From assembly GCA_000004695.1 (NCBI GenBank), contig CM000152.2, forward strand, positions 6,016,001-6,080,000: DNA of 64,000 nt, in the 5' to 3' direction. Shown here piece after piece: positions 31,385 to 62,949 of this stretch; within the stretch, counting starts at the first letter, position 1; each line of letters begins with the position of its first letter. Made by a program: the position numbers and the translations under genes. The notes under the pieces were generated by a model. That model was given only the letters and a program-made list of their open reading frames with translations. It was not told where the DNA came from and did no database searches. This DNA comes from Dictyostelium discoideum (Eukaryota).

Positions 31385-34300
31385 ATGGAAGAAAATAAAT
31401 CGATAATTACCACAACCGTTAAATCTGATAAACCAATTGGTTCATATGAAAATGGTGAATATTTATTTTGGAAAGTGTTTAATAATAAATATTTATTAAA
31501 TTTTATAATTTATAAGATTCAAACATCAGAATGGGAATACTATCAAGACCATTATCAAATTCATGCAGAGAATAGATGGAAATTTAAAGATGTTTTTTCA
31601 TTTGATTGGCTGATAATAAATCAACAATTCCCATTGTTAAAGAATAAAATTGAAAATAATGATTTCATTTTATTCGATAAAAAATCAATTCATATTCTAT
31701 TTAAAGAATTTTCAATTTTAAGTGGTACTAAAAAAGTTTTACCAAAATTAGCAAATAGTTACGATGAAAATGGTGATTATGGTAATGCTGAAGATGGCCA
31801 AGATGATGATGAAGATGATGATGATGACGAAGATGCTAAAAATGAAAATAATGAATATAAAAGAAAAGATGAAAAAAAAGCATTAATTTTAAAAGAAATT
31901 TTAATTTCATTATTAGAAAAAAAAAGAAACCAATTTGAAATTTGTGATCTTACAAAACTAGCAGTTATTAATAATAGTATTGAAGGTATTAAAATATTAA
32001 TTAATGAGCCATATTGTATCAATGTTTATCCATCAACCATAGAATTGGCATTTGAAAAATGTGATTGTGAAATGATTAAAACTTTACTATTAAATGAAAA
32101 TAAAAATAATAACATTTTAATAAACAATGAAATTAAAAAGAAATCATTGAAATTAGCCTCAAAAAATACTTTTCATTCAACTTATATAATTCAATTCTTA
32201 TTAGATAATCCAAATTTATATATACCACCACCACCAATATCATTACCACAATTACAAAATCCAAGTCCAGTTGAACCAGGTTTGCCAGAATTAAATGATA
32301 ATGATGATGATGATGATGATGATGATGACGAAGATGATAAAAATAAAAATAAAACTAAAACAAGGGAATGTTATATTTTATATGACTATTTAATATTAAT
32401 ATCAAGTTTACAAACTAAAAAGAAATTATTAGATTTAGATATTGTTTTAAAAAATCCACAAGGTTTAAAAGAAAATTTTAATATTACAGATTCAATCGAT
32501 GACTTGTTAATTAAATTAGAGATTAATTTAAAATATTTCCATGATTATTATGATGGCATTCCAAAGTCAATTTTAAAAAAGATTAATCAAATTTTAAATA
32601 ATCAATCAATCAGCAAAGAGAAACAATTAAAAAAGATTCAAAGATTAGTCATTTTAGTTTCAGGAGATTATACATTTTATAGTGGCTATATTTTAAAATA
32701 TGAAGAATCAATAAATGAATTTCATAATGATTCGTATTATTCAAATGATGACGATGGTGATGATAATGATGATGATGATGATGATGATGGTGAATCAAAA
32801 TTAATAACATTTTCAAGATTAATTTTATTGAATGTATTTTCATATCAATCACATACAACAATGGATAAATTAATGAAAAACTTTAAAGAAAAGAAAATTA
32901 AATGGCATAAACCACTATTTAAATTAATTGGTTCAGAGAAAAAAACAATTACAATTGATAAATCAACTTATGATTGGATTATAGGTACTGATTGTGATGA
33001 AGTTTTTGATTATTTTAATAGTAAACAATTTGATTTTCAATCATTTGAAACTGCAATCTATTGTTTTGAAAATTATAATAATTCAAGAAAATATTTAAAA
33101 CCATTTTCAATAAAAACTTTATACTTTAATTCAATTAAAGAATGTAATTTAGATCAATTGAAAACTATTGAATCATTATATATCGATCCATTTGATTTAT
33201 TTAGTGATCAACGTTCATATAAATGCATACCCCTACCAACTTCAAAAGATGATTTAATTAAATTAATCAATTATTTCAGTGATAGTAATTTCAAAGCATT
33301 TAGTAAAGATTCATTAGTTTCATTCTTTTCTCAAGTATTTAAAACTGGTTTAGTATCACCATCAGAGATTAAAATTAAAATTCCAACTACTATTACATTA
33401 CCAAATGATATTTTATTAGATGCATTATTTGATTTAGATTTAAAGTTTTTAGAATTATTATTGGTCAGTTTAGATGGATTTGAATTTGAACAAGAAGAGT
33501 ATGAAAGACTTGATTCAGTTGAAAAGAATTTATTTAGTAAAGAATTAAATCTTTTCCATAATGATATAGAATTAATTGATTTCGATGAATTATATAGATT
33601 AATTGAATTTATTATAAATAAATTTTTAAAAACTGGTAGTAAACGTGGTAGACGTAGTGAATCAGCTTGCGAAATTATGAATTATCTTTATCAAATGTTA
33701 CTTCAAAGAGAACTAGTTACACCAAAACAAGTTATAAAAGTTAATCAATTACTTCAATCACATTCAGTACCAATTAAACATTCATTATTCAATGCTTTCT
33801 ATTATCTTCAAATTAGATCAGCAAAATTCACAAAGTATATTTTATCAAGACCTGGTTTCGATAGTTTTTTCGAAATTAATTATGAAGAGTCATATAGTTG
33901 TTCAATTGATTATTCTGAAGGTGTGAATCATTTAGGCCAACATGGATTTGATTTGGCAATTTATTTAGATTTCGATTGTTTTACATTTGATTATGTATTA
34001 GGTACCAATGAAAATGGTGATTATAATACACCATTCGATCAAGTACTCTATCAATTGGTTTATCAACTTTCTCATAGTATAATTAATGAAATTGATATCA
34101 TCGATGATTTCACTTCATTATCAATGAATGCAGATTTAGAATATTGTTTAGATATTAGAAGAGTGGATTTATTTTTCAAACAATTGGAATTTATTAATAA
34201 ACAAATTCAACAAACCAATCTTGATGGTTATGAATATCAAGACGAGAATCCAACATTTCCAATTCAAGAAAGTATTTTAAATTCACCTTCAGATAATTTA

Positions 34301-35329
34301 TTGCCAACTAGTGAATTATTTTTAAATAGAGAACAACCACCAATACCACCAATACCACAATCTAAAACTTTTAATTCAGAAATACCATTTCCATTGGCTA
34401 GACACTATAATACACTTAAAATTTCAAATTCAGTATTGGATTTAGCATTGATTATAATGGATGTCGATGAAATTCAAAAATTAATCGAATGGAATTGGTA
34501 TAGAACTGATTTCCTTTTCTCAATCTTTTCAAAATCAATGTTTTGGAGTAAATTCGATGTCTCCCAACATTTGTTTACCAACTATAAAATTCAAATCCTT
34601 TCATTACCACAACATTCAATGACATCTCATTATAGTTATCTATTGGAATTCAATTATTTAATTAATAATCATTTTGAAAGAGTTAAAAATCCAAATCTAT
34701 TTAAAATTGATACATTAAAATCCGATAGTTTAAATTTTCCAACTGTTCTTAGCGCATATTTAGTCGACTATCTATCAAGATGTGATATTGGCGAATATGA
34801 AAAATTCATGGATATTAAAACTAGAGAAGAGCTTTTAAATATTTTAATTTTTATAATTTATGCAGAGTATTGCATAAATATGGAATTAGATACCGATACC
34901 AATTTATCATTGGACAGAAAAAAATTACTTTTTCCACTCATTGAATCTAAAGAATGTCAAGAAATTATTCAAAGAGCTTATGATAAATTTAAAATTAAAA
35001 ATGATGAAACTATAATCAGTCAAACTGAACAACAAATTAAAGATTACTCAACTCAAGTTGATAACATGTTTACTCTTGGTTTCATCAATGGTGATATCAT
35101 CATTTGTCAACTTATACTCAAACATTATCCAAATCTTTTCAAAATCACCCAATATGCTTTGGCAATGGCAATAAAAGCTGATAGAATTCATATTATCAAG
35201 TTTTATTATCATAACAACAATGATAATTTAATTATGAATTTAAAAGATGATCAATCATTAGTAGATTATTTAAAATCTGAACTTTTAAATCATCAAGATT
35301 ATAAATTTGATATTAATTGGTTAAATTAA
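31385..35329 (+). CDS. Hypothetical 1314-aa protein with acidic D/E runs (N-terminal LFWKVFNNKYL motif family); apparently single exon
   Basis: Continuous ORF from ATG 31385. Its last ~130 codons are the source of the fragment at 30501-30888. It shares the N-terminal F-K-V-F-x-N-K-Y-L motif with the 51799 gene. Confidence 0.55.
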   Translation: MEENKSIITTTVKSDKPIGSYENGEYLFWKVFNNKYLLNFIIYKIQTSEWEYYQDHYQIHAENRWKFKDVFSFDWLIINQQFPLLKNKIENNDFILFDKKSIHILFKEFSILSGTKKVLPKLANSYDENGDYGNAEDGQDDDEDDDDDEDAKNENNEYKRKDEKKALILKEILISLLEKKRNQFEICDLTKLAVINNSIEGIKILINEPYCINVYPSTIELAFEKCDCEMIKTLLLNENKNNNILINNEIKKKSLKLASKNTFHSTYIIQFLLDNPNLYIPPPPISLPQLQNPSPVEPGLPELNDNDDDDDDDDDEDDKNKNKTKTRECYILYDYLILISSLQTKKKLLDLDIVLKNPQGLKENFNITDSIDDLLIKLEINLKYFHDYYDGIPKSILKKINQILNNQSISKEKQLKKIQRLVILVSGDYTFYSGYILKYEESINEFHNDSYYSNDDDGDDNDDDDDDDGESKLITFSRLILLNVFSYQSHTTMDKLMKNFKEKKIKWHKPLFKLIGSEKKTITIDKSTYDWIIGTDCDEVFDYFNSKQFDFQSFETAIYCFENYNNSRKYLKPFSIKTLYFNSIKECNLDQLKTIESLYIDPFDLFSDQRSYKCIPLPTSKDDLIKLINYFSDSNFKAFSKDSLVSFFSQVFKTGLVSPSEIKIKIPTTITLPNDILLDALFDLDLKFLELLLVSLDGFEFEQEEYERLDSVEKNLFSKELNLFHNDIELIDFDELYRLIEFIINKFLKTGSKRGRRSESACEIMNYLYQMLLQRELVTPKQVIKVNQLLQSHSVPIKHSLFNAFYYLQIRSAKFTKYILSRPGFDSFFEINYEESYSCSIDYSEGVNHLGQHGFDLAIYLDFDCFTFDYVLGTNENGDYNTPFDQVLYQLVYQLSHSIINEIDIIDDFTSLSMNADLEYCLDIRRVDLFFKQLEFINKQIQQTNLDGYEYQDENPTFPIQESILNSPSDNLLPTSELFLNREQPPIPPIPQSKTFNSEIPFPLARHYNTLKISNSVLDLALIIMDVDEIQKLIEWNWYRTDFLFSIFSKSMFWSKFDVSQHLFTNYKIQILSLPQHSMTSHYSYLLEFNYLINNHFERVKNPNLFKIDTLKSDSLNFPTVLSAYLVDYLSRCDIGEYEKFMDIKTREELLNILIFIIYAEYCINMELDTDTNLSLDRKKLLFPLIESKECQEIIQRAYDKFKIKNDETIISQTEQQIKDYSTQVDNMFTLGFINGDIIICQLILKHYPNLFKITQYALAMAIKADRIHIIKFYYHNNNDNLIMNLKDDQSLVDYLKSELLNHQDYKFDINWLN

Positions 35330-38471: not shown

Positions 38472-38896
38472 ATGATAAAAGATACACACTATGAGTATGT
38501 GTTTTATTAATAATATAATTAATTTTAATTTTAATTTTAATTCTAACCAAAAATAAACTAAAAAAAAAAAATAAAAAATAAAAAAAATAAAAATAAAGTC
38601 ATTTTTTTAAAATTATAATTTTAGGAAATAAAGATATAAATAAAAAAGATTTCATAGATAATTCATTTTCTGTATGTTTTTATTTTTTTTATTTTTTTTT
38701 TTAGTTTATTTTTTTTTTTTTTCTTTTTATTAATTTTATTACAAAAATTTAGGAATTTAATTTAGAAAAAAATAAACTTCAACAACAACAAATAAATATT
38801 CAACAAACTCTAAATAGTGAATCAAAAATTAGATTGTTTCAATATGGCAATAAAAGAATAAAACTACAATTGGTATTTTTTTTTTTTTTTTTTTCC

Positions 38897-38934
<38 letters not shown>

Positions 38935-39522
38935 AAATATTAACCAAAATAAAAATATAAATAGTTGAGATATGACCCAGGAGTAGGAGATTCAACTATT
39001 TCTAAAGTATTTAGAGGAACTCATTGTTTAATTGTAATGTTTGATAGTAATAACAAAGACTCTATTAGTAATTTATCTTGTTGGGTTCAAGAATCAAGGA
39101 GGTATTCAAAGATTGATACACCAATAATAATATTAGGAATCAATAATACTGATGATGAACAAAAATTATATGAACAAGATTTAATAGAACAATTGGATGA
39201 AATTAAAAGATCATTCAATAATAATAATAATACTGAAATTCCAATTTTTCAAATAACTTTGAATAATCCAAACCCCAATATATCTAAGCAACTATTTGAT
39301 AGTATTTTAAAAGTTTCAATTGAATTTCAAAATAAAAATGACCCCAATAATTTAATAAATAGCTCAAATAATAATAATATCATAAAAACAACTGCAACAA
39401 CTACCACATCAAATGACATGCCAACAACAATAACTATATCACAATCCCAACATGTATCAACCTCAAATAACCCAAAAAGAAAAACTAATATATTATCATT
39501 TTTATTGTTTTGGAGAAAGTAA
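38472..39522 (+). CDS. Ras-like GTPase-like paralogue A (degenerate: no P-loop exon found, no DxxGQ). Probable exons 38472..38494, 38753..38872, 38965..39522.
   Basis: Micro-exon ATGATAAAAGATACACACTATGA|GTATGT is shared with the other copies. Exon EFNLEKNKLQQQQ...SKIRLFQYGNKRIKLQL is followed by a GTATTT donor. The terminal exon LRYDPGVGDSTISKVFRGTHCLIVMFDSNNKDSISNL... is Ras switch II/G4-like but has no NKxD. The exon phases are not fully reconcilable, so it is likely a pseudogene. Confidence 0.3.
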
Positions 39523-39591
39523 TTTATGGTTTTTTTTTTTTTTTTTTTTTTTGGGGGGAATATTAATCAAATTGAGGATAATCTATATAAA

Positions 39592-39622
<31 letters not shown>

Positions 39623-39938
39623 ATAAAAATATCTAATTTTTTTTTTTCATTTTTTATTTCACTAAAAATACCTTTGTAAAAAATATCATTTAAGATATTT
39701 GCAAATTATTTTTTTTTTTTTAGCTTCTTCTGAAAAACACCTAAATCAAAATTATTTTTCGAATTCAAAACTGCACTAAATTTTTCATCTTGTGTTTTTT
39801 AACCAGTTTCGGTAGTCCAAAGGTTTTTTTTTTTTTTTTTTTTCACTAAATATCTTTTGATTTTTTGATGTCATTTATTAAAAAAAGTAAAAAAAAAAAA
39901 AAAAATGGGAAATAAAATATCTAATTATTTTTGTTTAA

Positions 39939-39972
<34 letters not shown>

Positions 39973-40101
39973 TTAAATAAAGAAAATTTAAATTCTTCTT
40001 AAAAATTTCTATTTTATTAAATAAATATTTTACTTGTAATAAATAAATTATAAATATAAATAATAAAAAAAACAAAAAATTAAAAAAAAAAAAAAAAAAC
40101 A

Positions 40102-40391
40102 TTGAATACCTATGACCACGAGTATGAATTTCAAAAAAAAAAAAAAAAAAAAATTAAAACTTAACATCAATTATACTATTTTATTAAATTTCTTAATTTT
40201 ATTCTAAAAAAATATACAACAAAAATAATAATAGTAAATTCTTTACAACTTTAGTAATTGGTGATACTGGAGTTGGTAAAATGAAATTTATTCAAGGGTA
40301 TAGTGACGATAATTATAAATACTTTTTGAGTGATGGCTCGAGGTTTAAATTATTTTCATACGATGGATTTAAAATAAAATTATTATTGGTG

Positions 40392-40470
<79 letters not shown>

Positions 40471-40476
40471 TTAATT

Positions 40477-40513
<37 letters not shown>

Positions 40514-41036
40514 ATAATTTTTATAGGAAAGATATTTTGATAGACCATATGGCGGTGGATCAAATACCACTGTATATAGAAAAACTCAATGCTTTTTATT
40601 AATGATTGATGTTTGCGATACTGATTCATTGCAAAGTATTAAAATTTGGATAAGAGAAATTGTATCACTATCAAAACATGGAACTCCAATAATAATTATT
40701 GGAAATAAAATTGATTTAAAGGAACATAGAAAATTTACAAGTGAGCAAGCTTTAGAATTAATTGAACAAATTAAAGATAATTTAAATATAAAAATGCAAA
40801 TTCCATATTTTGAAATCTCTTCTATACAACCCGACCAATCACAATATGATAGAATTTTTAAACAAGTTTATTCGTTATCAAACCAAAGATTTTACAAACC
40901 TTTAATTAATATTAATGAAGGTAAAAATATTGTTGTTGAAGATTTTTCAAAAAATGATTCAATCCCCAATGATGATGGAATTAAAAAAAATAGAAAAAGT
41001 AAAATTTTTAAAGATATTTTATCAATTTTTAAATAA
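40102..41036 (+). CDS. Ras-like GTPase-like paralogue B; join(40102..40121,40235..40388,40527..41036). The start codon is TTG where the paralogues have ATG, so it is possibly a pseudogene.
   Basis: Micro-exon TTGAATACCTATGACCACGA|GTATGA (C has ATGAATAAA...). The exon ending in ATAG gives (D)KFFTTLVIGDTGVGKMKFIQGYSDDNYKYFLSDGSRFKLFSYDGFKIKLLL, then GTGGGT. After a T-run intron, a TATAG acceptor gives ERYFDRPYGGGSNTTVYRKTQCFLLMIDVCDTDSLQSIKIWIREIV...IIGNKIDL...YFEISS...stop. The P-loop reads GKM (no Ser/Thr) and there is no WDTAGQ. Confidence 0.4.
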
Positions 41037-41105
41037 AGATATAATTTTTTAAAAAAAAAAAAAAAAAAAAAAGAAATTAAAATATATATTAAAAATGTGT
41101 ATTAA

Positions 41106-41139
<34 letters not shown>

Positions 41140-41373
41140 GTAAAAAAAAAAAAAGGAAAAAAAAGTGGAAATTGAAAACCATTGATATTTTTTTTTTAAA
41201 ATTAAATTAATATTTTAAATGAAAAAAAAAAAAAGCCAATTTTTTGGGTTGGAAGATTTAAATAATATAATATTATTTATCCACAAAAAAAAAAAAAAAA
41301 AACAAAAAAAAAAAAAAATCAATTACATTTTTTAAATTATATATCCAATTGAAATATTAGATATTTTTTTAAA

Positions 41374-41453
41374 ATGAATAAAAAAGAATACGAGTAGGTA
41401 TTGAATATATAAATATGGCCAAATGAATATCATTTTTAATATTTTTTTATTTT

Positions 41454-41501
<48 letters not shown>

Positions 41502-41661
41502 TTTTTAAAACGTTAGTGATTGGAGATACTTGTGTTGGTAAAATAAAATTTATTCAAGGTTATATTGATGAAAATAATAGAGATGTATTTAATAACGATT
41601 CAAGATTTAAATTATTTTCCTGTGACGGATTAAAAATAAAATTTCTATTGGTTTGTTTTAT

Positions 41662-41700
<39 letters not shown>

Positions 41701-42267
41701 TATAAAAAAAAAATAATAATAACATATTTTTTAAATTTAATTTAAACAAAATATGTTTATAGGCCAACTGGAGGTGGATCAAATACAACAGTTTATAAAA
41801 ATACTCAATGCTTTTTAATAATATTTGATGTTTGTAATTTAGATTCCATGCATAGTGTTAAACTTTGGATAAGAGAAATTGTAAAATTTTCACAAGAAGA
41901 TACACCAATTATTGTTATTGGAAATAAGATTGATTTAAATGAAAAAAGACAAGTTAAAAATGAAGAAGTGATAGAATTTATTGGACAAATTAAAGCTGAT
42001 TTACAATTAACATTGAATATTCCATATTTTGAAATCTCTTCATTACAACCCGACCAATCACAATATGAAATAATTTTTAAACAAGTTTATTCATTATCAA
42101 ATCTAAGATTTTTCAACCCATCAATCAGCTTTGACGAGGATAAAGAAATTATTGATGATTGTTACTCTGATATTGATATTAAAGAAGATTCAAATGAAAA
42201 AAAAATTAAAAAACAAAAGAGAAAAAGTAAATCACTTAAAAAAATTGTTTCAATTTTTAAAAAATAA
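41374..42267 (+). CDS. Ras-like GTPase-like paralogue C; join(41374..41393,41497..41650,41763..42267). There is a 1-nt phase conflict at the exon 2/3 junction, so it is possibly a pseudogene.
   Basis: ATGAATAAAAAAGAATACGA|GTAGGT, then an AG acceptor giving (D)KFFKTLVIGDTCVGKIKFIQGYIDENNRDVFNNDSRFKLFSCDGLKIKFLL|GTTTGT. The TTTATAG acceptor at 41762 leaves the PTGGGSNTTVYKNTQCFLIIFDVCNLDSMHSVKLWIREIVKF...IGNKIDL...YFEISSLQ... frame one base out of phase. Confidence 0.4.
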
Positions 42268-42290
42268 TTATTTAAAAAACAATAAAGCTA

Positions 42291-42324
<34 letters not shown>

Positions 42325-42469
42325 TTTTTTTTTTTTTTTCTCTTTTTTTTTTATATTTTAAAAAAAAAATTACAAAATTGATCAATTTTTATTTTTATAA
42401 CCAACTTTTTTTTATTAACCTTTGTATTATATTTCAATAAAAAAAAAAAATTTTTAACAAACCTAAAAA

Positions 42470-43318
42470 ATGCTTTCAAAACAGGATTATGAGTAAATAT
42501 CATGATAATTGCAATAAAAAAAAAAAAAAAATAAAAAAAAATAAAAAAATAAAAAAATCTAATAATAATAAAAATAGACACTCTATAAAGATTTTATTAT
42601 CAGGAGATTCTGGTAAAAGTAGTTTTTTAAATAGAGCTATTGATGATATATATTTTGAAAATAATGTTTATCAGTGTGCACCCTCTTTAAAATTTTTTAA
42701 TGATCCAAATAGTTCTAGAGAGAATAAATATTATTATAAAAATTTAATATACAAACTTTGTTTTGTAAGTTTGACTAAACATTAAATTTTAAAAAAAATA
42801 TTTATTTAAATAGATTTATAGAGTTATTATTAATTTTTTTTAATTAATTTATATTAAAAAAAAAAAAAAAAAAAAAGTATGAATATTTTCAAGATAGATT
42901 TCGTTCAATAGGTAATAACCCCTATAGAGGTGCAAGATTTAATTTTATTTTATTTAATGTATGTGATCAAGAATCATTTGATAATGTCCCTAAATATTAT
43001 TTTGAGGCAGAAAGGTATGGAAAAGAAGATATTCATATTATTTTAATTGGTGTTGGAATTGATGATATTGAAAATAGAATTATTGATTATGAAGTTGCTT
43101 TAGATTTAGCAAATTCTAATAATACTCCATATTTTGAAGTAAATAATAAATCGCCATCACCACTTGAAAAAGAAATTTATCAAAGAATAATTGAAACTGC
43201 AATCGGAAAAGTTCATGATGAATTAAATATTCAACCTCCACCATCATCAAAACCATCAACTCCAATAACAACAACAACCAAAACTAAAGGTATTTCAGGT
43301 TTTTTAAAAAAGAAATAA
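42470..43318 (+). CDS. Ras-like GTPase-like paralogue D (216 aa); join(42470..42492,42578..42764,42878..43318)
   Basis: ATGCTTTCAAAACAGGATTATGA|GTAAAT, then an AAAATAG acceptor giving (E)HSIKILLSGDSGKSSFLNRAIDDIYFENNVYQCAPSLKFFNDPNSSRENKYYYKNLIYKLCF|GTAAGT. An A-run AG acceptor gives YEYFQDRFRSIGNNPYRGARFNFILFNVCDQESFDNVPKYYFEAE...ILIGVGIDD...YFEVNNKS...stop. All junctions are phase-consistent. The DxxGQ and NKxD motifs are absent. Confidence 0.55.
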
Positions 43319-44010
43319 ATAAAAAAACCAATAATAATTAAATAAAATCAACCTTTTTTTTATTTTTTTATTTTTTTATTTTTTTTTTTTTGTAAAACAA
43401 AAACTGTTTTTTGAAATCTCAAAAAATTTCACTTAATTTAATAAGAATCAATTTCAACTGTGAGGTATGAAACAATCTACAAAAAAAAAAAATAAAAAAT
43501 AAAAAATAAAAAAATAAAAAAAATAATAATAAAAATAATAATTAAATATCAGGTATGGATTATTTGGTCTAAATTTGAATTTTGTTTTTTTTTTTTTTTC
43601 TATTTTTACAAAAATTAAAATATCTTTATTTTTTTTTTATTTTTTTTATTTTTTATTTTTTTTTTTTTTTTTAAACAGTTTGATAGCGTTGCACAAAAAA
43701 TTATTGGAGATTGAAAGTTTTTTAATGGGAAAAAAATCTAAAATGATTAATTAACTTGTACAATATTAAAAACCCGAAAAAAGTTGAAAAAAAAAAATCT
43801 TTTCTTTTTTTCAGTGTGATGACGTGCAACAGTAAAAAATCATATTTTATTTTATTTTTTTTGGTTTTTTTTTTTATTTTAAAATAATCAAATTGATACA
43901 CAAAAAAAGACTTCACTAAATTTGATGTGCAATAAAAAAAAATCATTTTGTCTTTGTCTATTTTTTTTACAATTTTTTTATTTTTAATTTGAATAATTTA
44001 TTGTAATAAA

Positions 44011-44047
<37 letters not shown>

Positions 44048-44134
44048 AGATACAAAAAAAAATAATATAAATATAAAAAAGATAATTATAAAAAAAAAAA
44101 AAAATATAAACATAAAAAAGACAAAAAAATAAAT

Positions 44135-44504
44135 ATGTGTGATTACGAGTAAGAAATTTTTATTTTTACAATTATTTGTTTGTTTATTTTTTTTTTTATA
44201 ATTATTTGTTTTTTTTTTTTTTATAATTTTATTTTATATTAATATTAATTAAAAAAAAAAAAAAAAATAGTTTCATATTTGAATTTTTAGTAATTGGTGA
44301 TTGTAATGTTGGAAAATCATCATTTGTATATCAATATTGCGAAAACTTTAAAACCAAAATAAGAAGTAGAGAACGTGGTGATGGTAATACATTTATACCT
44401 AAATTAATAAGAGTTGATGATAAAAATTGTTTTTTAAAATTTGTATGTATTAAAAAAAAAAAAAAAAAAAAAAAATAATTAAATAAATAAAAATTATTAA
44501 TTGT

Positions 44505-44543
<39 letters not shown>

Positions 44544-44989
44544 TTAAATATTATAAAAGAGTAAATTGTTTACCAAATTATAGATTTATAAATATAGCGG
44601 ATTGTATATTTATACTATTTGATGTTTGTAATAGAGAATCATTTGATAATGTTGGACATTATTATAATGAAATTTTAAAATATTCAAGTGAAAATTTATT
44701 AATTACATTAATTGGTTGTAAAGCTGATTTATTAAATAGAGAAGTTGACCAAAATGAAGCATTAGAATTTTCCAAAAAACATAATATACCCTATTTTGAA
44801 GTTAATAATTTTTCACCTTCAGAAATTGAAAAGAATGTTTATCAACAAATCTCACAAACTATTCTACCAGAACTTGTAAATATTAATTCAACTACTCAAC
44901 CTATAACTGAAAATCAACATCCCCCAACTAAACCCCACTCTCCTCCAATTAAAAATAGTTTTTTCAAATTTTGGATAAAAAACAAATAA
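44135..44989 (+). CDS. Ras-like GTPase-like paralogue E (210 aa); join(44135..44148,44271..44442,44543..44989)
   Basis: ATGTGTGATTACGA|GTAAGA, then an AAAATAG acceptor giving (D)FIFEFLVIGDCNVGKSSFVYQYCENFKTKIRSRERGDGNTFIPKLIRVDDKNCFLKF|GTATGT. A poly-A AG acceptor gives VKYYKRVNCLPNYRFINIADCIFILFDVCNRESFDNVGHYYNEI...LIGCKADL...YFEVNNFS...stop. This is the best-preserved P-loop (GxxxVGKSS), but there is still no WDTAGQ. Confidence 0.55.
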
Positions 44990-45183: not shown

Positions 45184-45582
45184 TTAGTTTTTCTTGGCTT
45201 TACGGGCAGCAGCTTTTTTGGCAGAACGGAGAGCAGATTGGACTCTGTGTAAACGACCTAAGGCAGCAGCTCTTAATTCTGGAGCATATTGGGTGGCTAA
45301 AGTTTTGACGAATCTAGCAGTCTTTCTGGTGTTGACAGTTGAGAAAGTGGTGGTTTTTTTTGATTGAGCTGGGAAGGCAGCTTTTTTAACAATCTTTGAT
45401 GAGACAACAACTTTACCGTTAACGGCAGCAACGTCGATGGTGGTTCTTCTGGCAAGACCGGAGTATTTTAAGGAGTTTTTGTTTCTTAAATTACCTGGTT
45501 CAGCAGATAAGGTTAAACCGTGTGAGGATTTTAAGAAAGCGTTGTTCTTTTTGATAATGCTCCAAACGAGATCTTGAGACAT
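45184..45582 (-). CDS. rpl28: 60S ribosomal protein L28 (eL28), single exon
   Basis: MSQDLVWSIIKKNNAFLKSSHGLTLSAEPGNLRNKNSLKYSGLARRTTIDVAA...AALGRLHRVQSALRSAKKAAARKAKKN fits the eL28 family. The ATG is at 45582. Codon usage is GC-richer, as expected for a highly expressed gene. Confidence 0.85.
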   Translation of the reverse strand: MSQDLVWSIIKKNNAFLKSSHGLTLSAEPGNLRNKNSLKYSGLARRTTIDVAAVNGKVVVSSKIVKKAAFPAQSKKTTTFSTVNTRKTARFVKTLATQYAPELRAAALGRLHRVQSALRSAKKAAARKAKKN

Positions 45583-56151: not shown

Positions 56152-56224
56152 GCTCGATTAGCTCAGTCGGCAGAGCGTGGTGCTAATAACGCCACGGTCG
56201 CAGGTTCGATCCCTGCATCGAGCA
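56152..56224 (+). tRNA. tRNA-Ile (anticodon AAU)
   Basis: GCTCGAT/ATCGAGC acceptor stem, GCTC/GAGC D stem, TGGTG/CGCCA anticodon stem, CTAATAA loop (AAT), GCAGG-TTCGATC-CCTGC T arm, discriminator A; 73 nt. Confidence 0.8.
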
Positions 56225-57163: not shown

Positions 57164-60100
57164 TTATTTATAGAAAGTACTGAGTGAATTATTGTATTTT
57201 TTGAGATGTTTAGGAAGTTCTATTGCGTGAAGAGGTGAGTTCCATTGTCTGCTAAATTGTAATAGCTTTAGCGAGATTAGTGAGTCTAATTTATTTTGTT
57301 CTTCTGGCCGTTGCTTTGATTTGATTCTTAATGTTTTGTTTATAACCGCTTGTGTCCTGTCCCATGCAGCTCTTTGTGTTTTAATTAGTTCACGTATGAC
57401 TTGTTGTCTGTGAATTATTATTTCTTTTTCATCGTGAATGAGTTTATTTCTTTTGTGCCAGATTTTATCGAATATAATAGCTATTAAATTGGCTACTAGT
57501 GCAATTTGTAGATGGTTTAAAATCTTCACATTCCAGGTGTGAGTGGTGTGTCCACACTTAGTTAGGGTGTAGTTGAAGATTTCTTGTGTGTTTTTGATGT
57601 GGGCTTTGCAGTTGAAGAATATATGTTCTGAGGTCTCATCTTCCCCACACTGTTGGCATGGCATGTTGTATATTTTTGGTAGTGCTTTCAGTGTGTATCT
57701 CCATAATAGATCTCTACCTTTCATGTTTATTATTTTTTTGATTTCTTTAAATGGAAGGTGTTTGCTATTAATTTTGGTCATTATTTCTTTTTGGCCAGGA
57801 GTTGGTATGAATTTGTTGTGTTCAGGAGATTGAGTTGTCATCATATCTTCGTATATTTTTTTTAATTTTGGGAGGTGTTCGTAGTGTGTTTGTTTATTTT
57901 GTGGAGTTTTTAATTGGGTCCATGCTTGCTTGCATTGCCAGTGTAGTTGTAGTTGATTTTGTTTTGTTGTTGTTTTGTTGTTGTTGTTGTTTTTGAGTTC
58001 CTCTTCCCACAGTTTTATATATGAACTAGGAGTGTTACTTACTCTTTGGTGGAGGTATCTTTCGAATAACCATGCTTTCTGTGCTAGTTCTCTTGTCTTC
58101 AGGTTCCATAAGTTTAGGCCACCATTGATATAGTTGTTTTGTCTTCTTTGTAGTGAAAGAGAGTTTTTAGATTTTGTGTTGAAAACGAATTTTACGATGT
58201 TATTTTCAATACTATTGTGTTGTGGTGTGGTGTTGATGTAAGTGTGGAACGTTAACTGAGATAGTGCATATGTTTTTGCCATTATGAGTCTGCCCATATA
58301 GGTTGATGAAGTTGAGTTCCATGTTACTAGTTTAGCTCTGATGTTGTCTGAGATTGTATTGATTTTGGATTTGATACCCTTATTGTTGAAGTCAAAGCCG
58401 AGGTACCTTTCGTTTGATTTTATGACGGTGTATAGCGTTCTGGTGTTCCATTTGAAAGTGATACACGAGCATTTGGTTTGGTTTATTTTTGCGCTGGTTG
58501 CTTGGCAAAACTTCTTGATCCATTCATTCATGAGGAAATGGTCCATAAAGTTGTATGCTATTGTTGCTGTATCATCGGCGAACTGTAGTATTTTAATGGT
58601 TTCTTTGGTTACACCATTGATGCAGCGGTCATTTATTATAGTAGTTGCCATGCATTCACCCACTAATGCGAAGATAGTGGGAGAGATAGGATCACCTTGT
58701 TTGGTTCCTCTTTTTGATGTAAAGCTTTTAGATAATGAGTTATTGATGTACACTGATGTTTCTGATTCATTGAGTAAGTTCATTATTGTGAGGACCATTT
58801 TGAGTGGTAGTTTTAGATGTGCAAGAGTACGTAGAATGGCGTTATGTGAGAATAAATCGAATGCTTTTTCAAAATCATAAAATGTTATGATTGGTTCCAT
58901 ATCCTCTTTTGTGTTAATCTCTCGTTTTATTATTTCTATTGTTGAGTTTAAGGTGATGATGTTATCGTGCAGTAGTCTTCTTGGTACGAATCCAGTTTGG
59001 AATGGTGAGATTATTTTGTTTAAGAACTTCAGGATCCTATTGTTGATTATTTTCGAATAGATTTTGTAATCGACATTTAGAAGTGTTATTGGTCTATAAT
59101 TATCCAGGTTGTTTGGGTCTCCTTTGTTTTTATATATAGTAATCAATATCCCTTGTTTGAAGTCCTTTGGGATTGTTGTGTTCCAGAAGTGATTGTATAG
59201 TTTTGATATTATTGGTAGAATTTCATTAATGTGGTTTTTGTAAAATGTTGGAAGGAGTCCATCTTTACCAGGTGCTTTTCCTTCTTGTATTTTTTCAATG
59301 CCTAGTCTGATTTCATATCCTTCTATTGGTTGATTAATTTCGTCCAATATCTTTTGATCAATCCTTTTATTGAATGTTTTTAGGAGTTCGTGGTGAGTGT
59401 CTTCGTTGCATTCTCTCTTCTGGTACAGGTTCTCGTAATATCTTCTTGCTACTTCGAGGATATCCTCGTGTTTTGTTACCAAACAATTGTTGCTTGGATC
59501 TAGAATTTGAGGGATTTCATTTGTCTTTCTTTGGACTTTTAACCTTCTGGTTAAGTATTTTGATGGTGTTTCTTTGTTGTTGATGTGGGTGTTGGTTTGG
59601 TTTGCTTGTTTTATTCTTACTTGTTCCTTTAGAATATTGTTGATCTCTTCTTTAAGGAAGATTGCTCTTGAATCTTTGGCTGTTTCGAGTTTTTCTGCGA
59701 GTTCTTTTAGTTTGTTTTTGGTTTTATTGCTTTCTCTAATTTCTATATTAATTGACAGTTTCTTTATTTCATCTTTTAGTTTCAACCATTGTTCGCAAAT
59801 GTTTAATTTGTACCATTTGCTGGTGTTCTCTTCGAATTTTTTATTGTAGTATTTAATTGTTTTATTAATTTTGAGGCTGGTTGAATTCATTTTGAGAGTT
59901 TCTAGGTTTTGTCTCCATAGTCTTTCTCCTTTCTTTTGTTGCTCGTATTCTGGTATTTTTAATTCAATGATTACCATGTTGTGATCAGATTTTAATTTGA
60001 TTTCCTTAGTAGTAACTATTGGGTTTAGATGGAGTATCTTCTTTGAGACAAAGACCCTATCGATGGTTGATTTGTTTCTTGGAAATGTGATTCCATTCTT

Positions 60101-60385
60101 AATTTCTGTAAATTCGAATTCGTCGAAGATTGTTTTAATATATTTGTTAAGGTTATTATCCACTGAACAGTCTACATTGAAGTCTCCAGTTATAATATCG
60201 CTGTGTAGTATTTCTTCTGTGAGATTTTCCTTATACCATTCATGTCTTTCGTTTGACTTTGCTGGGGCATAAATGGTTGTGCATTTGATCTGTGTTTTTG
60301 CAATCATCCATTCGGAAGATATAATTCTTTCGTTTATTGTTTTTGTTGTTGTTTTTATTTGGGTGTTGATGATGATTTGTGACAC
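57164..60385 (-). CDS. TRE5-A ORF2 (apurinic-type endonuclease, reverse transcriptase and Cys-rich domain; 1073 codons; true start codon uncertain)
   Basis: Uninterrupted frame. Endonuclease and RT motifs as above. A CCHC-like tail, ...CQQCGEDETSEHIFFNCKAH. Confidence 0.8.
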   Translation of the reverse strand: MSQIIINTQIKTTTKTINERIISSEWMIAKTQIKCTTIYAPAKSNERHEWYKENLTEEILHSDIITGDFNVDCSVDNNLNKYIKTIFDEFEFTEIKNGITFPRNKSTIDRVFVSKKILHLNPIVTTKEIKLKSDHNMVIIELKIPEYEQQKKGERLWRQNLETLKMNSTSLKINKTIKYYNKKFEENTSKWYKLNICEQWLKLKDEIKKLSINIEIRESNKTKNKLKELAEKLETAKDSRAIFLKEEINNILKEQVRIKQANQTNTHINNKETPSKYLTRRLKVQRKTNEIPQILDPSNNCLVTKHEDILEVARRYYENLYQKRECNEDTHHELLKTFNKRIDQKILDEINQPIEGYEIRLGIEKIQEGKAPGKDGLLPTFYKNHINEILPIISKLYNHFWNTTIPKDFKQGILITIYKNKGDPNNLDNYRPITLLNVDYKIYSKIINNRILKFLNKIISPFQTGFVPRRLLHDNIITLNSTIEIIKREINTKEDMEPIITFYDFEKAFDLFSHNAILRTLAHLKLPLKMVLTIMNLLNESETSVYINNSLSKSFTSKRGTKQGDPISPTIFALVGECMATTIINDRCINGVTKETIKILQFADDTATIAYNFMDHFLMNEWIKKFCQATSAKINQTKCSCITFKWNTRTLYTVIKSNERYLGFDFNNKGIKSKINTISDNIRAKLVTWNSTSSTYMGRLIMAKTYALSQLTFHTYINTTPQHNSIENNIVKFVFNTKSKNSLSLQRRQNNYINGGLNLWNLKTRELAQKAWLFERYLHQRVSNTPSSYIKLWEEELKNNNNNKTTTKQNQLQLHWQCKQAWTQLKTPQNKQTHYEHLPKLKKIYEDMMTTQSPEHNKFIPTPGQKEIMTKINSKHLPFKEIKKIINMKGRDLLWRYTLKALPKIYNMPCQQCGEDETSEHIFFNCKAHIKNTQEIFNYTLTKCGHTTHTWNVKILNHLQIALVANLIAIIFDKIWHKRNKLIHDEKEIIIHRQQVIRELIKTQRAAWDRTQAVINKTLRIKSKQRPEEQNKLDSLISLKLLQFSRQWNSPLHAIELPKHLKKYNNSLSTFYK

Positions 60386-60597: not shown

Positions 60598-61932
60598 TTA
60601 TAGTTTTATTTGGGGTAGATTTTTATCTACCTTTTGAAGTTTCTGGTTTATTTTGTCTTCTAACTGATCTTTACTTTGTTCGTTGTGTTGTTGGTCTTGT
60701 GTGTTTGTGGGGTTTTTTGATTTACTGATTTGTTTTAGAATTTCCTTGTTGAAGTTGTCTATATCTTCATCCATTTTTGTTTTTATGCTTTTTTGTCCAT
60801 ATTCACCCAATTTTGGTTTGACTGGTGTTTTGTTGGTCCTGTTTGTTTTGTCTTGTTGTTTGTTTTTTGGTGTGTTTAACAATTTACTTGGTGAATCGAT
60901 AATTTTCGATGGTGTACCATAGGTTGGGCTGAAACTCATGATATGTTTTATTGGAGAGGAGAAGAACCATTGATTTGAAGGGATTGAAAGTGGGAATTCT
61001 ATTTTTCTTATTGCATCAGTGTTTGGGCTGGTGAAGTCGAAGATATCATTTACCTCTCTAAGTTTTTCTTCCGTTGTTAGTCTCTTTGTTTCGCCGTGTT
61101 GTTTTATTGGTGTATTGTATGGAGATGGTGGTTCAATAGGTTTTTCTGATTTTGTTTTAATTTCTTGATTTTTTATCGATTGGGTATTGATCTCATTCTC
61201 TATTCTTGTTAGTTCATCTACGTTTTCTAGTGATGCATCTATTACCTTTTGAGCTGTATCATCTAGGGCCATAAATGTTTTATCATTAAATGAGGAGGTG
61301 ATTGGTGGGATAATGATTGTTCTTTTTCCTTGTTTTGGTATTTGTTCTGATGTAGATTTTGGTTGTTGTTCATCTGATTGGTTTTTATTTTTGTTTTCTT
61401 CTTGATTTTCTGGTAATGAGGTTTGATCTCTCCATCCTTTGTTGGAGTGACCAATTAATGTTAGATTGTCTAGTTCAATGATAGTATCATATTCTTCTAC
61501 GACTCTTTTCACTGTTTTGATAATTAGAGTTTCGCCTTTAATTTCAGATTTAATTAGTTTACATCCTTCATTTTCTATTACCCATTCTATTTCTGTGAGT
61601 GATTTATACCAATCGAAATCCGTATACATATTTTTTGGTCTTAGAGTGGTTATAAATTGTCCTTTTAATTCTGCATCGAACATATTTACAAAATAGATTA
61701 CTGTACTAATACTGTCTGTGAGAATTTTGAATGTATTATTACTTTTGATTAAAACATCTTTTTTGTCCAAACTTTTTTCTAAATCTTTTTTTATTTTATC
61801 GTCTGGTTCGTGATTGATGTTTATGACGTATTTGAATTGTTTTTTTTTTAATTGAGTTTTATCCACAATTTCGCTTATTTTTTGTAGGCATTTGTGTTGC
61901 TTAATATTTGTGGTGTTGTTTGTGATTTTCAT
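60598..61932 (-). CDS. TRE5-A ORF1 (444 aa, basic nucleic-acid-binding protein)
   Basis: ATG at 61932. The first 70 codons are duplicated at 57026-56817. A 212-bp spacer lies before ORF2. Confidence 0.7.
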   Translation of the reverse strand: MKITNNTTNIKQHKCLQKISEIVDKTQLKKKQFKYVININHEPDDKIKKDLEKSLDKKDVLIKSNNTFKILTDSISTVIYFVNMFDAELKGQFITTLRPKNMYTDFDWYKSLTEIEWVIENEGCKLIKSEIKGETLIIKTVKRVVEEYDTIIELDNLTLIGHSNKGWRDQTSLPENQEENKNKNQSDEQQPKSTSEQIPKQGKRTIIIPPITSSFNDKTFMALDDTAQKVIDASLENVDELTRIENEINTQSIKNQEIKTKSEKPIEPPSPYNTPIKQHGETKRLTTEEKLREVNDIFDFTSPNTDAIRKIEFPLSIPSNQWFFSSPIKHIMSFSPTYGTPSKIIDSPSKLLNTPKNKQQDKTNRTNKTPVKPKLGEYGQKSIKTKMDEDIDNFNKEILKQISKSKNPTNTQDQQHNEQSKDQLEDKINQKLQKVDKNLPQIKL

Positions 61933-62779: not shown

Positions 62780-62853
62780 GTTCGGATGGTGTAGTCGGTT
62801 ATCACGAATCCTTAACACGGATTAGGTCGTGGGTTCGATTCCCGCTCTGAATA
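62780..62853 (+). tRNA. tRNA-Val (anticodon AAC)
   Basis: GTTCGGA/TCTGAAT acceptor stem (two G-U pairs), GTGT...TCAC D arm, AATCC-TTAACAC-GGATT anticodon arm, variable AGGTC, GTGGG-TTCGATT-CCCGC T arm, discriminator A; 74 nt. Confidence 0.75.
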
Positions 62854-62949
62854 CAAACTAACATTTTTAAGTAACAAATTAAAAAACAAAGAAATAAACG
62901 AGAATTTATACATATAATAAATATCACAGGTAAAAAAAAAAAAATACAT

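Follow-up and report, generated by a model that had tools for sequence, protein, structure and literature searches.

The window examined here is the whole of a 64,000-nucleotide stretch of Dictyostelium discoideum DNA, which exact protein matches of its spliced translations place on chromosome 3 of strain AX4; all positions below are positions in the window. Between 38472 and 44989 it carries five genes, here called A to E, which are arranged head-to-tail on one strand. In our view the array is best interpreted as a tandem family of five atypical or pseudo-GTPases that derive from Rabs, are restricted to one lineage and are maintained by selection, and we put the probability of this reading at roughly 0.65. 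The DxxGQ sequence (WDTAGQE) is absent at switch II from the five copies and from every orthologue, including that of D. purpureum, and all five copies are under purifying selection. An earlier note on this DNA, written from the letters alone, had described the five head-to-tail genes, and exact protein matches together with matches to the Pfam Ras family confirm that they are real.

Gene models and splice structure

The five genes were rebuilt from the sequence with GT..AG splice junctions and in-frame closure, the acceptor used in other genomes being adopted for gene C. The resulting models are listed here, with lengths in nucleotides (nt).

Gene A, + strand, 257 amino acids, four exons:
38472..38494 (+), exon 1, 23-nt micro-exon ending in phase 2; the 23 nt are kept in all eight genomes
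38599..38671 (+), exon 2, degenerate P-loop exon of 73 nt encoding HFFKIIILGNKDINKK (HFFKIIILGNKDINKKDFIDNSFS); identical to XP_640174.1 and kept in orthologues
38753..38872 (+), exon 3, switch I region to beta3, ...KRIKLQL
38965..39522 (+), exon 4, LRYDPGVGD... to the C-terminus ...LSFLLFWRK

Gene B, + strand, 227 amino acids, three exons:
40102..40121 (+), exon 1, 20-nt micro-exon, TTG start in the AX4 window
40235..40388 (+), exon 2, P-loop GDTGVGKM ... KIKLLL
40527..41036 (+), exon 3, ERYFDRPYGGGSNTT..., NKID, ...ILSIFK

Gene C, + strand, 231 amino acids, three exons:
41374..41393 (+), exon 1, 20-nt micro-exon
41497..41650 (+), exon 2, P-loop GDTCVGKI ... KIKFLL
41746..42267 (+), exon 3, TKYVYRPTGGGSNTT..., NKID, ...IVSIFKK; spliced as in the five other genomes with a gene C

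Gene D, + strand, 216 amino acids, three exons:
42470..42492 (+), exon 1, 23-nt micro-exon
42578..42764 (+), exon 2, shortened P-loop SGDSGKS ... YKLCF
42878..43318 (+), exon 3, YEYFQDRFRSIGNNPYRGA..., GVGIDD, ...GISGFLKKK

Gene E, + strand, 210 amino acids, three exons:
44135..44148 (+), exon 1, 14-nt micro-exon
44271..44442 (+), exon 2, intact P-loop GDCNVGKS ... CFLKF
44543..44989 (+), exon 3, VKYYKRVNCLPNYRF..., GCKADL, ...SFFKFWIKNK

The product of gene A is an exact match to XP_640174.1 (DDB_G0282647), which is labelled 'Rab GTPase domain-containing protein' in the database, and that of gene E is an exact match to XP_640177.1, labelled 'Rab GTPase'. The 216-residue protein of gene D is identical to KAM9950711.1 from strain ACTFIT and that of gene B, if it begins with methionine, to KAM9950709.1 from the same strain; in both cases the AX4 model is close. 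The AX4 RefSeq model of D (XP_640176, 219 residues) has an extra IYR at the exon 2/3 junction, and its acceptor is probably misplaced, since the 216-residue model agrees with the ACTFIT annotation and with the cross-species models. The array genes are thus already in the databases as 'Rab GTPase' and 'small GTPase', and no published description of them was found: no paper was found to mention DDB_G0282647 (gene A) or Q54S62 in its main text and nothing was found in the supplements of PMC8535579, genes B to E being unmapped to DDB_G identifiers. Searching the window by tblastn with all five proteins revealed no further paralogues or pseudogene fragments of the array.

Intron 1 is in phase 2 in every copy and falls within the Asp/Glu codon of a (D/E)YD lead-in, and the intron preceding the switch II region is in phase 0 in every copy. 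The array introns are 81–138 nt long with 3–11% G+C, in a window that is itself AT-rich (approximately 17–34% G+C). The three-exon layout described previously holds for B, C, D and E; gene A has four exons in a model that equals RefSeq XP_640174, its exon 2 (38599–38671) having been missed when A was said to have no P-loop exon. Nor is the layout unusual, being a conserved gene structure whose intron phases are shared by D. purpureum. The micro-exons, of 23, 20, 20, 23 and 14 nt in A to E, end in phase 2 at ...(TAY or CAC)GA/GTA. A phase-2 micro-exon of 14–23 nt in each gene was therefore correctly noted; the ending TA(T/C)GA is not common to all copies, as B ends in CACGA. Four instances of the ATG-led form of this signature were found in the window where 0.15 would be expected, each at an array gene, and B is a fifth that carries TTG.

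Relationship to the Rab GTPases

All five proteins match the Pfam Ras family PF00071 above its cutoff of 21.6 bits (A 28.8, B 64.2, C 68.7, D 56.8 and E 73.9 bits), which bears out the earlier assignment as Ras-like, and the family is Rab-like. The nearest solved sequences are those of Rab1A/B, Rab27, Ypt1 and Rab11, with E = 1.6e-17 for gene E. AlphaFold2 models were made for B and E with the family alignment. The B model has a mean predicted local distance difference test (pLDDT) score of 76.8, with most core blocks above 90 and lower confidence in switch I and in the loops that replace switch II; the E model is weaker (63.9) with the same topology. In both, the predicted order of strands and helices is b1-a1-b2-b3-a2-b4-a3-b5-a4-b6-a5, that of a small-GTPase G domain. 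Among the top 50 Foldseek matches in the PDB for each model, all are Rabs, with target-normalized template-modelling scores of 0.7–0.85.

The array shares with canonical Rabs (Rab1/Ypt1, Rab3, Rab8/Sec4, Rab11 and Rab27) the (D/E)YD-hydrophobic lead-in to beta1, remnants of RabF2–F5 (KLQL; RFRSIG and PYRGA in D; xxFDVC) and a variable linker followed by a conserved C-terminal motif of membrane type. It differs from them in having no DxxGQ, no complete G1–G5 set, no RabF1 and no C-terminal CC, CXC or CAAX cysteines, with an identity of 20–28%. Judged by eye against the RabF1–F5 scheme of Pereira-Leal and Seabra for Rab-family motifs, RabF1 (IGVDF) is absent, RabF2 (KLQLL in A) and RabF5 (FDVC) are partial, and RabF3 and RabF4 are near-intact in D only (RFRSIG and PYRGA). 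These remnants fit descent from a Rab rather than full membership of the Rab family. The array passes the Ras-superfamily tests and fails three Rab hallmarks, namely G3, the G4/G5 set and prenylation.

Degeneration of the G motifs

When aligned to Rab1A, the G3 position reads LRYDPGVGD in A, ERYFDRPYGGG in B, TKYVYRPTGGG in C, YEYFQDRFRS in D and VKYYKRVNC in E; this alignment and those of the orthologues support the original observation that DxxG is missing from switch II in every copy. The G1 P-loop reads GNKDINKK in A, GDTGVGKM in B, GDTCVGKI in C, SGDS--GKS in D and GDCNVGKS in E. Within the array only E keeps the canonical GxxxxGK[S/T], and D is two residues short. In the orthologue groups of B and C the GK is followed by Met, Ile or Leu and not by Ser or Thr, in agreement with the degenerate P-loops reported for these two genes; in A the GNKDINKK sequence stands at the position where a P-loop exon had been thought absent. 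At G4, NKID is found in B and C only, as previously noted for NKxD, with CKAD in E, VGID in D and INNT in A. At G5, SSI/SSL, NNK/NNF or TLN stands in place of SAK, which is lost in every copy. None of the five copies has a complete, intact set of G motifs. In D. citrinum gene A (8791–9534 of the fetched locus), a poly-Asn insertion of approximately 55 residues falls precisely where the G4 (NKxD) loop used to be, which argues that this loop no longer contacts the guanine base.

C-terminal tails

The last ten residues contain no cysteine in any copy, and there is no CC, CXC, CCXX or CAAX motif. The proteins end instead in ...FWRK, ...SIFK(K), ...FLKKK or ...WIKNK, in tails whose last 12 residues are free of cysteine, with a net charge of +4 to +6, three to seven hydrophobic or aromatic residues and, in B and C, a high helical hydrophobic moment. 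The tail follows a low-complexity linker and is the more conserved of the two in A, D and E (column identity of the last 12 residues and of the linker 0.95 and 0.77, 0.92 and 0.65, and 1.00 and 0.89, respectively); in C (0.98 and 0.94) and B (0.76 and 0.71) the values are about equal or slightly higher for the tail. From its composition, the polybasic/hydrophobic tail would hold the proteins at membranes.

Orthologues and family history

Homologous loci were taken from eight further assemblies (ACTFIT, ACTFIR, two D. cf. discoideum, D. citrinum, D. dimigraforme, D. firmibasis and D. purpureum), and orthologues were found by an exhaustive search of splice models scored against the D. discoideum proteins. 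For each gene, six to seven other genomes have an intact open reading frame (ORF) with the same exon lengths, including those of the micro-exons, and canonical splice sites. D. citrinum has A, B, D and E and lacks C. In D. firmibasis (CM069765.1) all five genes are intact and the array is split, with A-B-C approximately 190 kb from D-E-rpl28 on the same chromosome. The downstream neighbours rpl28, tma16 and a WD40 gene are conserved in every species, including D. purpureum, and the first of these serves as the synteny anchor:
45184..45582 (-), ribosomal protein L28e gene, downstream of the array in every species examined

D. purpureum has a single member, XP_003293042, directly upstream of rpl28-tma16-WD40 and so in the same synteny as E, on a contig that extends only 4.8 kb upstream of it. 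The protein keeps GDRNVGKS and NKID and lacks DxxGQ, so the loss of G3 is older than the expansion. Its gene has four exons, with intron 1 in phase 2, intron 2 at about the position of the extra intron of gene A and intron 3 in phase 0 before SKYEEKSLGG. The comparison shows that the ancestor was one gene just upstream of rpl28, from which the switch II DxxGQ had gone before D. purpureum and D. discoideum diverged. In the D. discoideum clade this gene gave rise to five copies (A; B/C; D/E), and each of them fixed its own non-canonical G1, G3, G4 and G5 sequences.

An exhaustive profile search of 1.84 billion representatives returned only the B/C representative, E, the D. purpureum protein and D from D. 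firmibasis, followed by canonical and fused Rabs. Word-seeded searches in which E or the D. purpureum protein was the query were too insensitive and gave almost nothing beyond near-identical orthologues. The family appears to be confined to the D. discoideum/D. purpureum lineage and to one syntenic locus.

Elsewhere in the genome of a D. cf. discoideum we note ACTFIZ_011862, a Rab-like protein without DxxGQ (…RIWDIPNKMNYP…) that retains GDSGVGKS, NKID and SAK as well as cysteines at its C-terminus; atypical Rabs of the D. discoideum group are therefore not limited to the array.

Selection and expression

Ratios of nonsynonymous to synonymous substitution (dN/dS, omega) were computed pairwise against ACTFIT by the NG86 method with a codon bootstrap, the YN00 method being saturated for several pairs under the extreme AT bias. 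The values are 0.15–0.29 for A, 0.06–0.26 for B, 0.12–0.23 for C, 0.07–0.16 for E and 0.46–0.90 for D. The upper 95% bootstrap bounds are at most 0.38 for A, B, C and E, at omega values of 0.12–0.26, and at most 0.76 for the interspecies pairs of D. In nine of the ten comparisons no replicate reached 1, and only that of D with D. cf. discoideum overlapped it. The sequences that replace the G motifs are themselves near-invariant within orthologue groups, as in LRYDPG[VI]GDSTISKVFRGTH, RP.GGGSNTTVY and KYYKR[VL]NCLPNYRFINIAD. Because dN/dS is low, the replacements are invariant and the tails are conserved, we consider the products to be functional proteins and not those of decaying pseudogenes.

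Gene A has 11 entries in the differential-expression lists from AX4 developmental RNA sequencing (Rosengarten et al., 2015; PMC4403905, additional file 7), including UP_Hr03_rapid and UP_Hr18_gradual on filters, that is, up at 3 h and at 18 h. It is therefore transcribed and regulated.

Lesions in genes B and C of AX4

Two of the disabling changes described earlier are confined to AX4 or had another origin. The start of B at 40102 is TTG in the AX4 window, as stated, and ATG in seven other genomes (ACTFIT and six more); the change is a single-base state private to the AX4 sequence. The reported 1-nt phase clash between exons 2 and 3 of C came from the wrong choice of acceptor, tatag/G at 41763. 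The conserved acceptor lies 17 nt upstream, at 41745/41746, and reads tttAG/ACAAAATA (tttAG/ACAAAATATG...) in all five of the other genomes with a gene C; it yields KIKFLL/TKYVYRPTGGG, parallel to B. In the AX4 window only, the acceptor dinucleotide (41744–41745) is AA (tttAA). Comparison of ACTFIT with the window over 38.0–45.2 kb (7.2 kb) gave nine substitutions, all within 40102–42319 (2.2 kb). Two of them are the B start and C acceptor lesions, and no other exon base differs.

Three work-arounds were considered and rejected. The AX4 RefSeq model of B (XP_001134551) rescues the gene with an upstream 28-nt exon at 39905..39932 (+) encoding MGNKISNYF, which is present in D. discoideum strains only and not in five other genomes; it is probably not the ancestral start of B. 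An in-frame ATG at 40112 combined with a cryptic acceptor would remove the first half of beta1. For C, splicing at GTTTTA/GGAG/GT in AX4 would give a protein of 223 residues that is not in any database and is superseded by the acceptor conserved elsewhere. As a separate observation, MGNKISNYF resembles an N-myristoylation motif (MGxxxS).

The AX4 lesions mean either that the laboratory lineage has undergone a recent loss or that the reference is in error. It is an appreciable possibility, short of an even chance, that the T at 40102 and the A at 41745 arose as mistakes in the 2005 reference sequence and that the AX4 lineage carries no such mutations. Poor reads in this stretch would account for the clustering of the nine substitutions in 2.2 kb as well as a haplotype block would; natural diversity of approximately 0.1%, however, would yield the same number of differences. 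The work-around model of B and an older fused B–C model indicate that the reference has long read in this way, but they are not independent evidence. The two single-base differences make the AX4 strain, or its sequence, unrepresentative of D. discoideum.

Interpretation of the array

All five copies would be classed as pseudoGTPases by sequence, combining a predicted G-domain fold with the loss of motif residues. The proteins would no longer act as GTP-hydrolysing switches. Tethered to membranes by the polybasic/hydrophobic tail, they would instead be constitutive modules for binding or scaffolding, or would compete within Rab pathways. To judge from the motifs that are kept, E and the D. purpureum protein, with an intact P-loop, and B and C, with NKxD and GxxxxGK, may bind nucleotide without normal hydrolysis or switching. 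A, which has neither GK[ST] nor NKxD, and D, with its P-loop short by two residues and no NK, are probably nucleotide-free.

Several points weigh against this interpretation. Loss of a motif need not mean loss of binding. The membrane role of the tail rests on composition only, and the AlphaFold confidence for the tail is below 50. Expression evidence is for gene A only, and no reads across a micro-exon junction were seen. Constraint on D is relaxed, with an omega of up to 0.90 in one close pair. The search for distant relatives was limited, the word-seeded query with the D. purpureum protein having missed even the D. discoideum members. Finally, some copies at least are dispensable, given that D. 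citrinum has no C and that B and C may not work in AX4.

The main rival is that these are true GTPase switches with a non-canonical G3/switch II, in which, for example, the Gly-rich RPxGGGS loop of B and C or the DPGVG of A could contact the gamma-phosphate. It finds support in the GxxxxGKS of E and the D. purpureum protein, in the GxxxxGK and NKID of B and C, in the confidently predicted G-domain core and in the conservation of the replacement loops, which is compatible with a catalytic or a binding role. However, no copy combines intact G1, G3, G4 and G5, the position of the catalytic Gln is absent everywhere, the GK of B and C is not followed by the Mg-coordinating Ser/Thr, and A and D lack a proper P-loop and the NK. 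We consider it unlikely.

It is very improbable that the array consists of decaying pseudogenes, the non-functional relics of a Rab duplication. Such a reading would accommodate the degeneracy of all of the G motifs, the TTG start of B and the destroyed acceptor of C in the AX4 window, the missing C of D. citrinum and the raised omega of D. It is largely refuted at the level of the family by the intact reading frames, canonical splice sites and identical exon lengths in six to seven other genomes per gene, by omega values of 0.06–0.29 for A, B, C and E, whose bootstrap replicates all stay below 1, by the invariance of the degenerate motifs, by the developmental regulation of gene A and by the persistence of the family since the split from D. 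purpureum. No lesion common to several lineages was found, disabling changes being present only in B and C of AX4, and omega for D is below 1 between species. The earlier suggestion that some copies are decaying is therefore abandoned, the B and C lesions being specific to AX4 and the supposed defect of A a missed exon. The rest of that proposal, a lineage-specific expansion of putative pseudo-GTPases in which G3 is gone from all copies and the other G motifs degenerate copy by copy, is consistent with the sequences.

That the missing DxxGQ is an artefact of the gene models (an unrecognized micro-exon or wrong splice sites) is scarcely credible: micro-exons do occur in the array genes, and for B, C and D the AX4 annotation departs from the models made in other strains, but the exon 2/3 introns (92–138 nt, 3–8% G+C) are AT-rich, no array intron encodes DxxG in any of three frames, so that a hidden DTAGQ micro-exon was rejected, the junction phases close exactly, the same proteins were annotated independently in five other assemblies, and D. 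purpureum shares the intron position with SKYEEKSLGG directly after it.

Comparison with known atypical GTPases

Described pseudoGTPases include CENP-M, the pG1/pG2 and N-terminal domains of p190RhoGAP and the psGD of AAGAB; class i members neither bind nor hydrolyse nucleotide, and others bind it without hydrolysis (PMC12490416, PMC5593906, PMC10211241). Like the array proteins, they keep the G-domain fold, have lost binding and/or catalytic G-motif residues and are expected to work by protein–protein interaction and not by a nucleotide cycle. They are single conserved genes, or domains of larger proteins, and have been validated biochemically, whereas the array, known from sequence, is of Rab origin, has expanded recently in tandem as stand-alone genes and has lost its motifs to graded extents.

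RhoH and the RGK proteins are atypical small GTPases with an altered G3 or no hydrolysis. With the Rnd proteins, they resemble the array in being stand-alone and in having deviant switch II or catalytic positions, and they are regulated by expression and localization and not by a GTPase cycle. All of these bind GTP with intact G1 and G4; the array keeps G1 or G4 in some copies and a recognizable G3 in none. Rnd1/3 likewise have an altered G3 or no hydrolysis (PMC10211241).

The array tails ...KRKxxILSFLLFWRK and ...SFFKFWIKNK resemble the C-terminal cluster of Rit/Rin, a resemblance that does not amount to demonstrated homology. The Rit/Rin cluster, polybasic and aromatic, mediates membrane binding, and Rit/Rin and RABL2/3/5 lack prenylation signals. 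Unlike the array, Rit/Rin and the RABLs retain functional G motifs.

Saito-Nakano (2005) reportedly described some Entamoeba Rabs without conserved motifs or cysteines. The Entamoeba expansions parallel the array in comprising amoebozoan, species-group-restricted Rab paralogues with non-conventional features; they are unrelated to it, the array being one syntenic locus of the D. discoideum/D. purpureum lineage. The genome of Entamoeba histolytica contains 102 Rab genes (PMC5071775).

We tentatively propose, while holding it doubtful, that the array may be the first selection-kept, stand-alone, Rab-derived pseudoGTPase family: a graded series (E and B/C possibly nucleotide-binding, A and D nucleotide-free) of constitutive membrane adaptors with a new cysteine-free basic-hydrophobic tail anchor, a recent expansion in the D. 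discoideum clade and use in development. In a more speculative variant, the proteins would serve as decoys, or compete, for host or bacterial proteins that bind Rabs; this might account for D evolving faster and for the variable copy number of B and C. If biochemistry confirms what is read from the sequence, the array would offer, in a genetically tractable organism, a natural series of related Rab-fold proteins with nucleotide-binding motifs from intact to obliterated. It would then be useful for asking what the Rab fold does without a switch and how a prenyl anchor is replaced. The wider impact is modest, because the genes are already in databases and lineage-specific atypical Rabs are known in the Amoebozoa. 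For AX4, the gene models require correction at the rescue exon of B, probably not the ancestral start, at the lost acceptor of C and at the acceptor of D, which should be the one that gives the 216-residue protein.

Other features of the window

A canonical Rho/Rac-type GTPase gene lies 9 kb from the array and was rejected as a paralogue, being unrelated to it. Its last exon is at 29140–29733 (-), with an intact DxxGQ and the CAAX box CNIL, and the 5' part of the ORF is a poly-Lys read-through of an intron. A 620-residue ORF at 26766–28628 (+) contains 13 FNIP repeats (Pfam PF05725, E = 1.4e-82). The segments 30495–30794 and 34934–35233 form a direct repeat of 300–418 nt with 92% identity, also present in ACTFIT, and the 3' end of a 1314-residue ORF (31385–35329) is duplicated upstream of that ORF. 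The region 56–62 kb has a strong negative AT skew and higher G+C content, with long minus-strand ORFs at 57164–60385 and 60598–61932. Two tRNA genes were identified, tRNA-Ile(AAT) at 56152–56224 (+) and tRNA-Val(AAC) at 62780–62854 (+).

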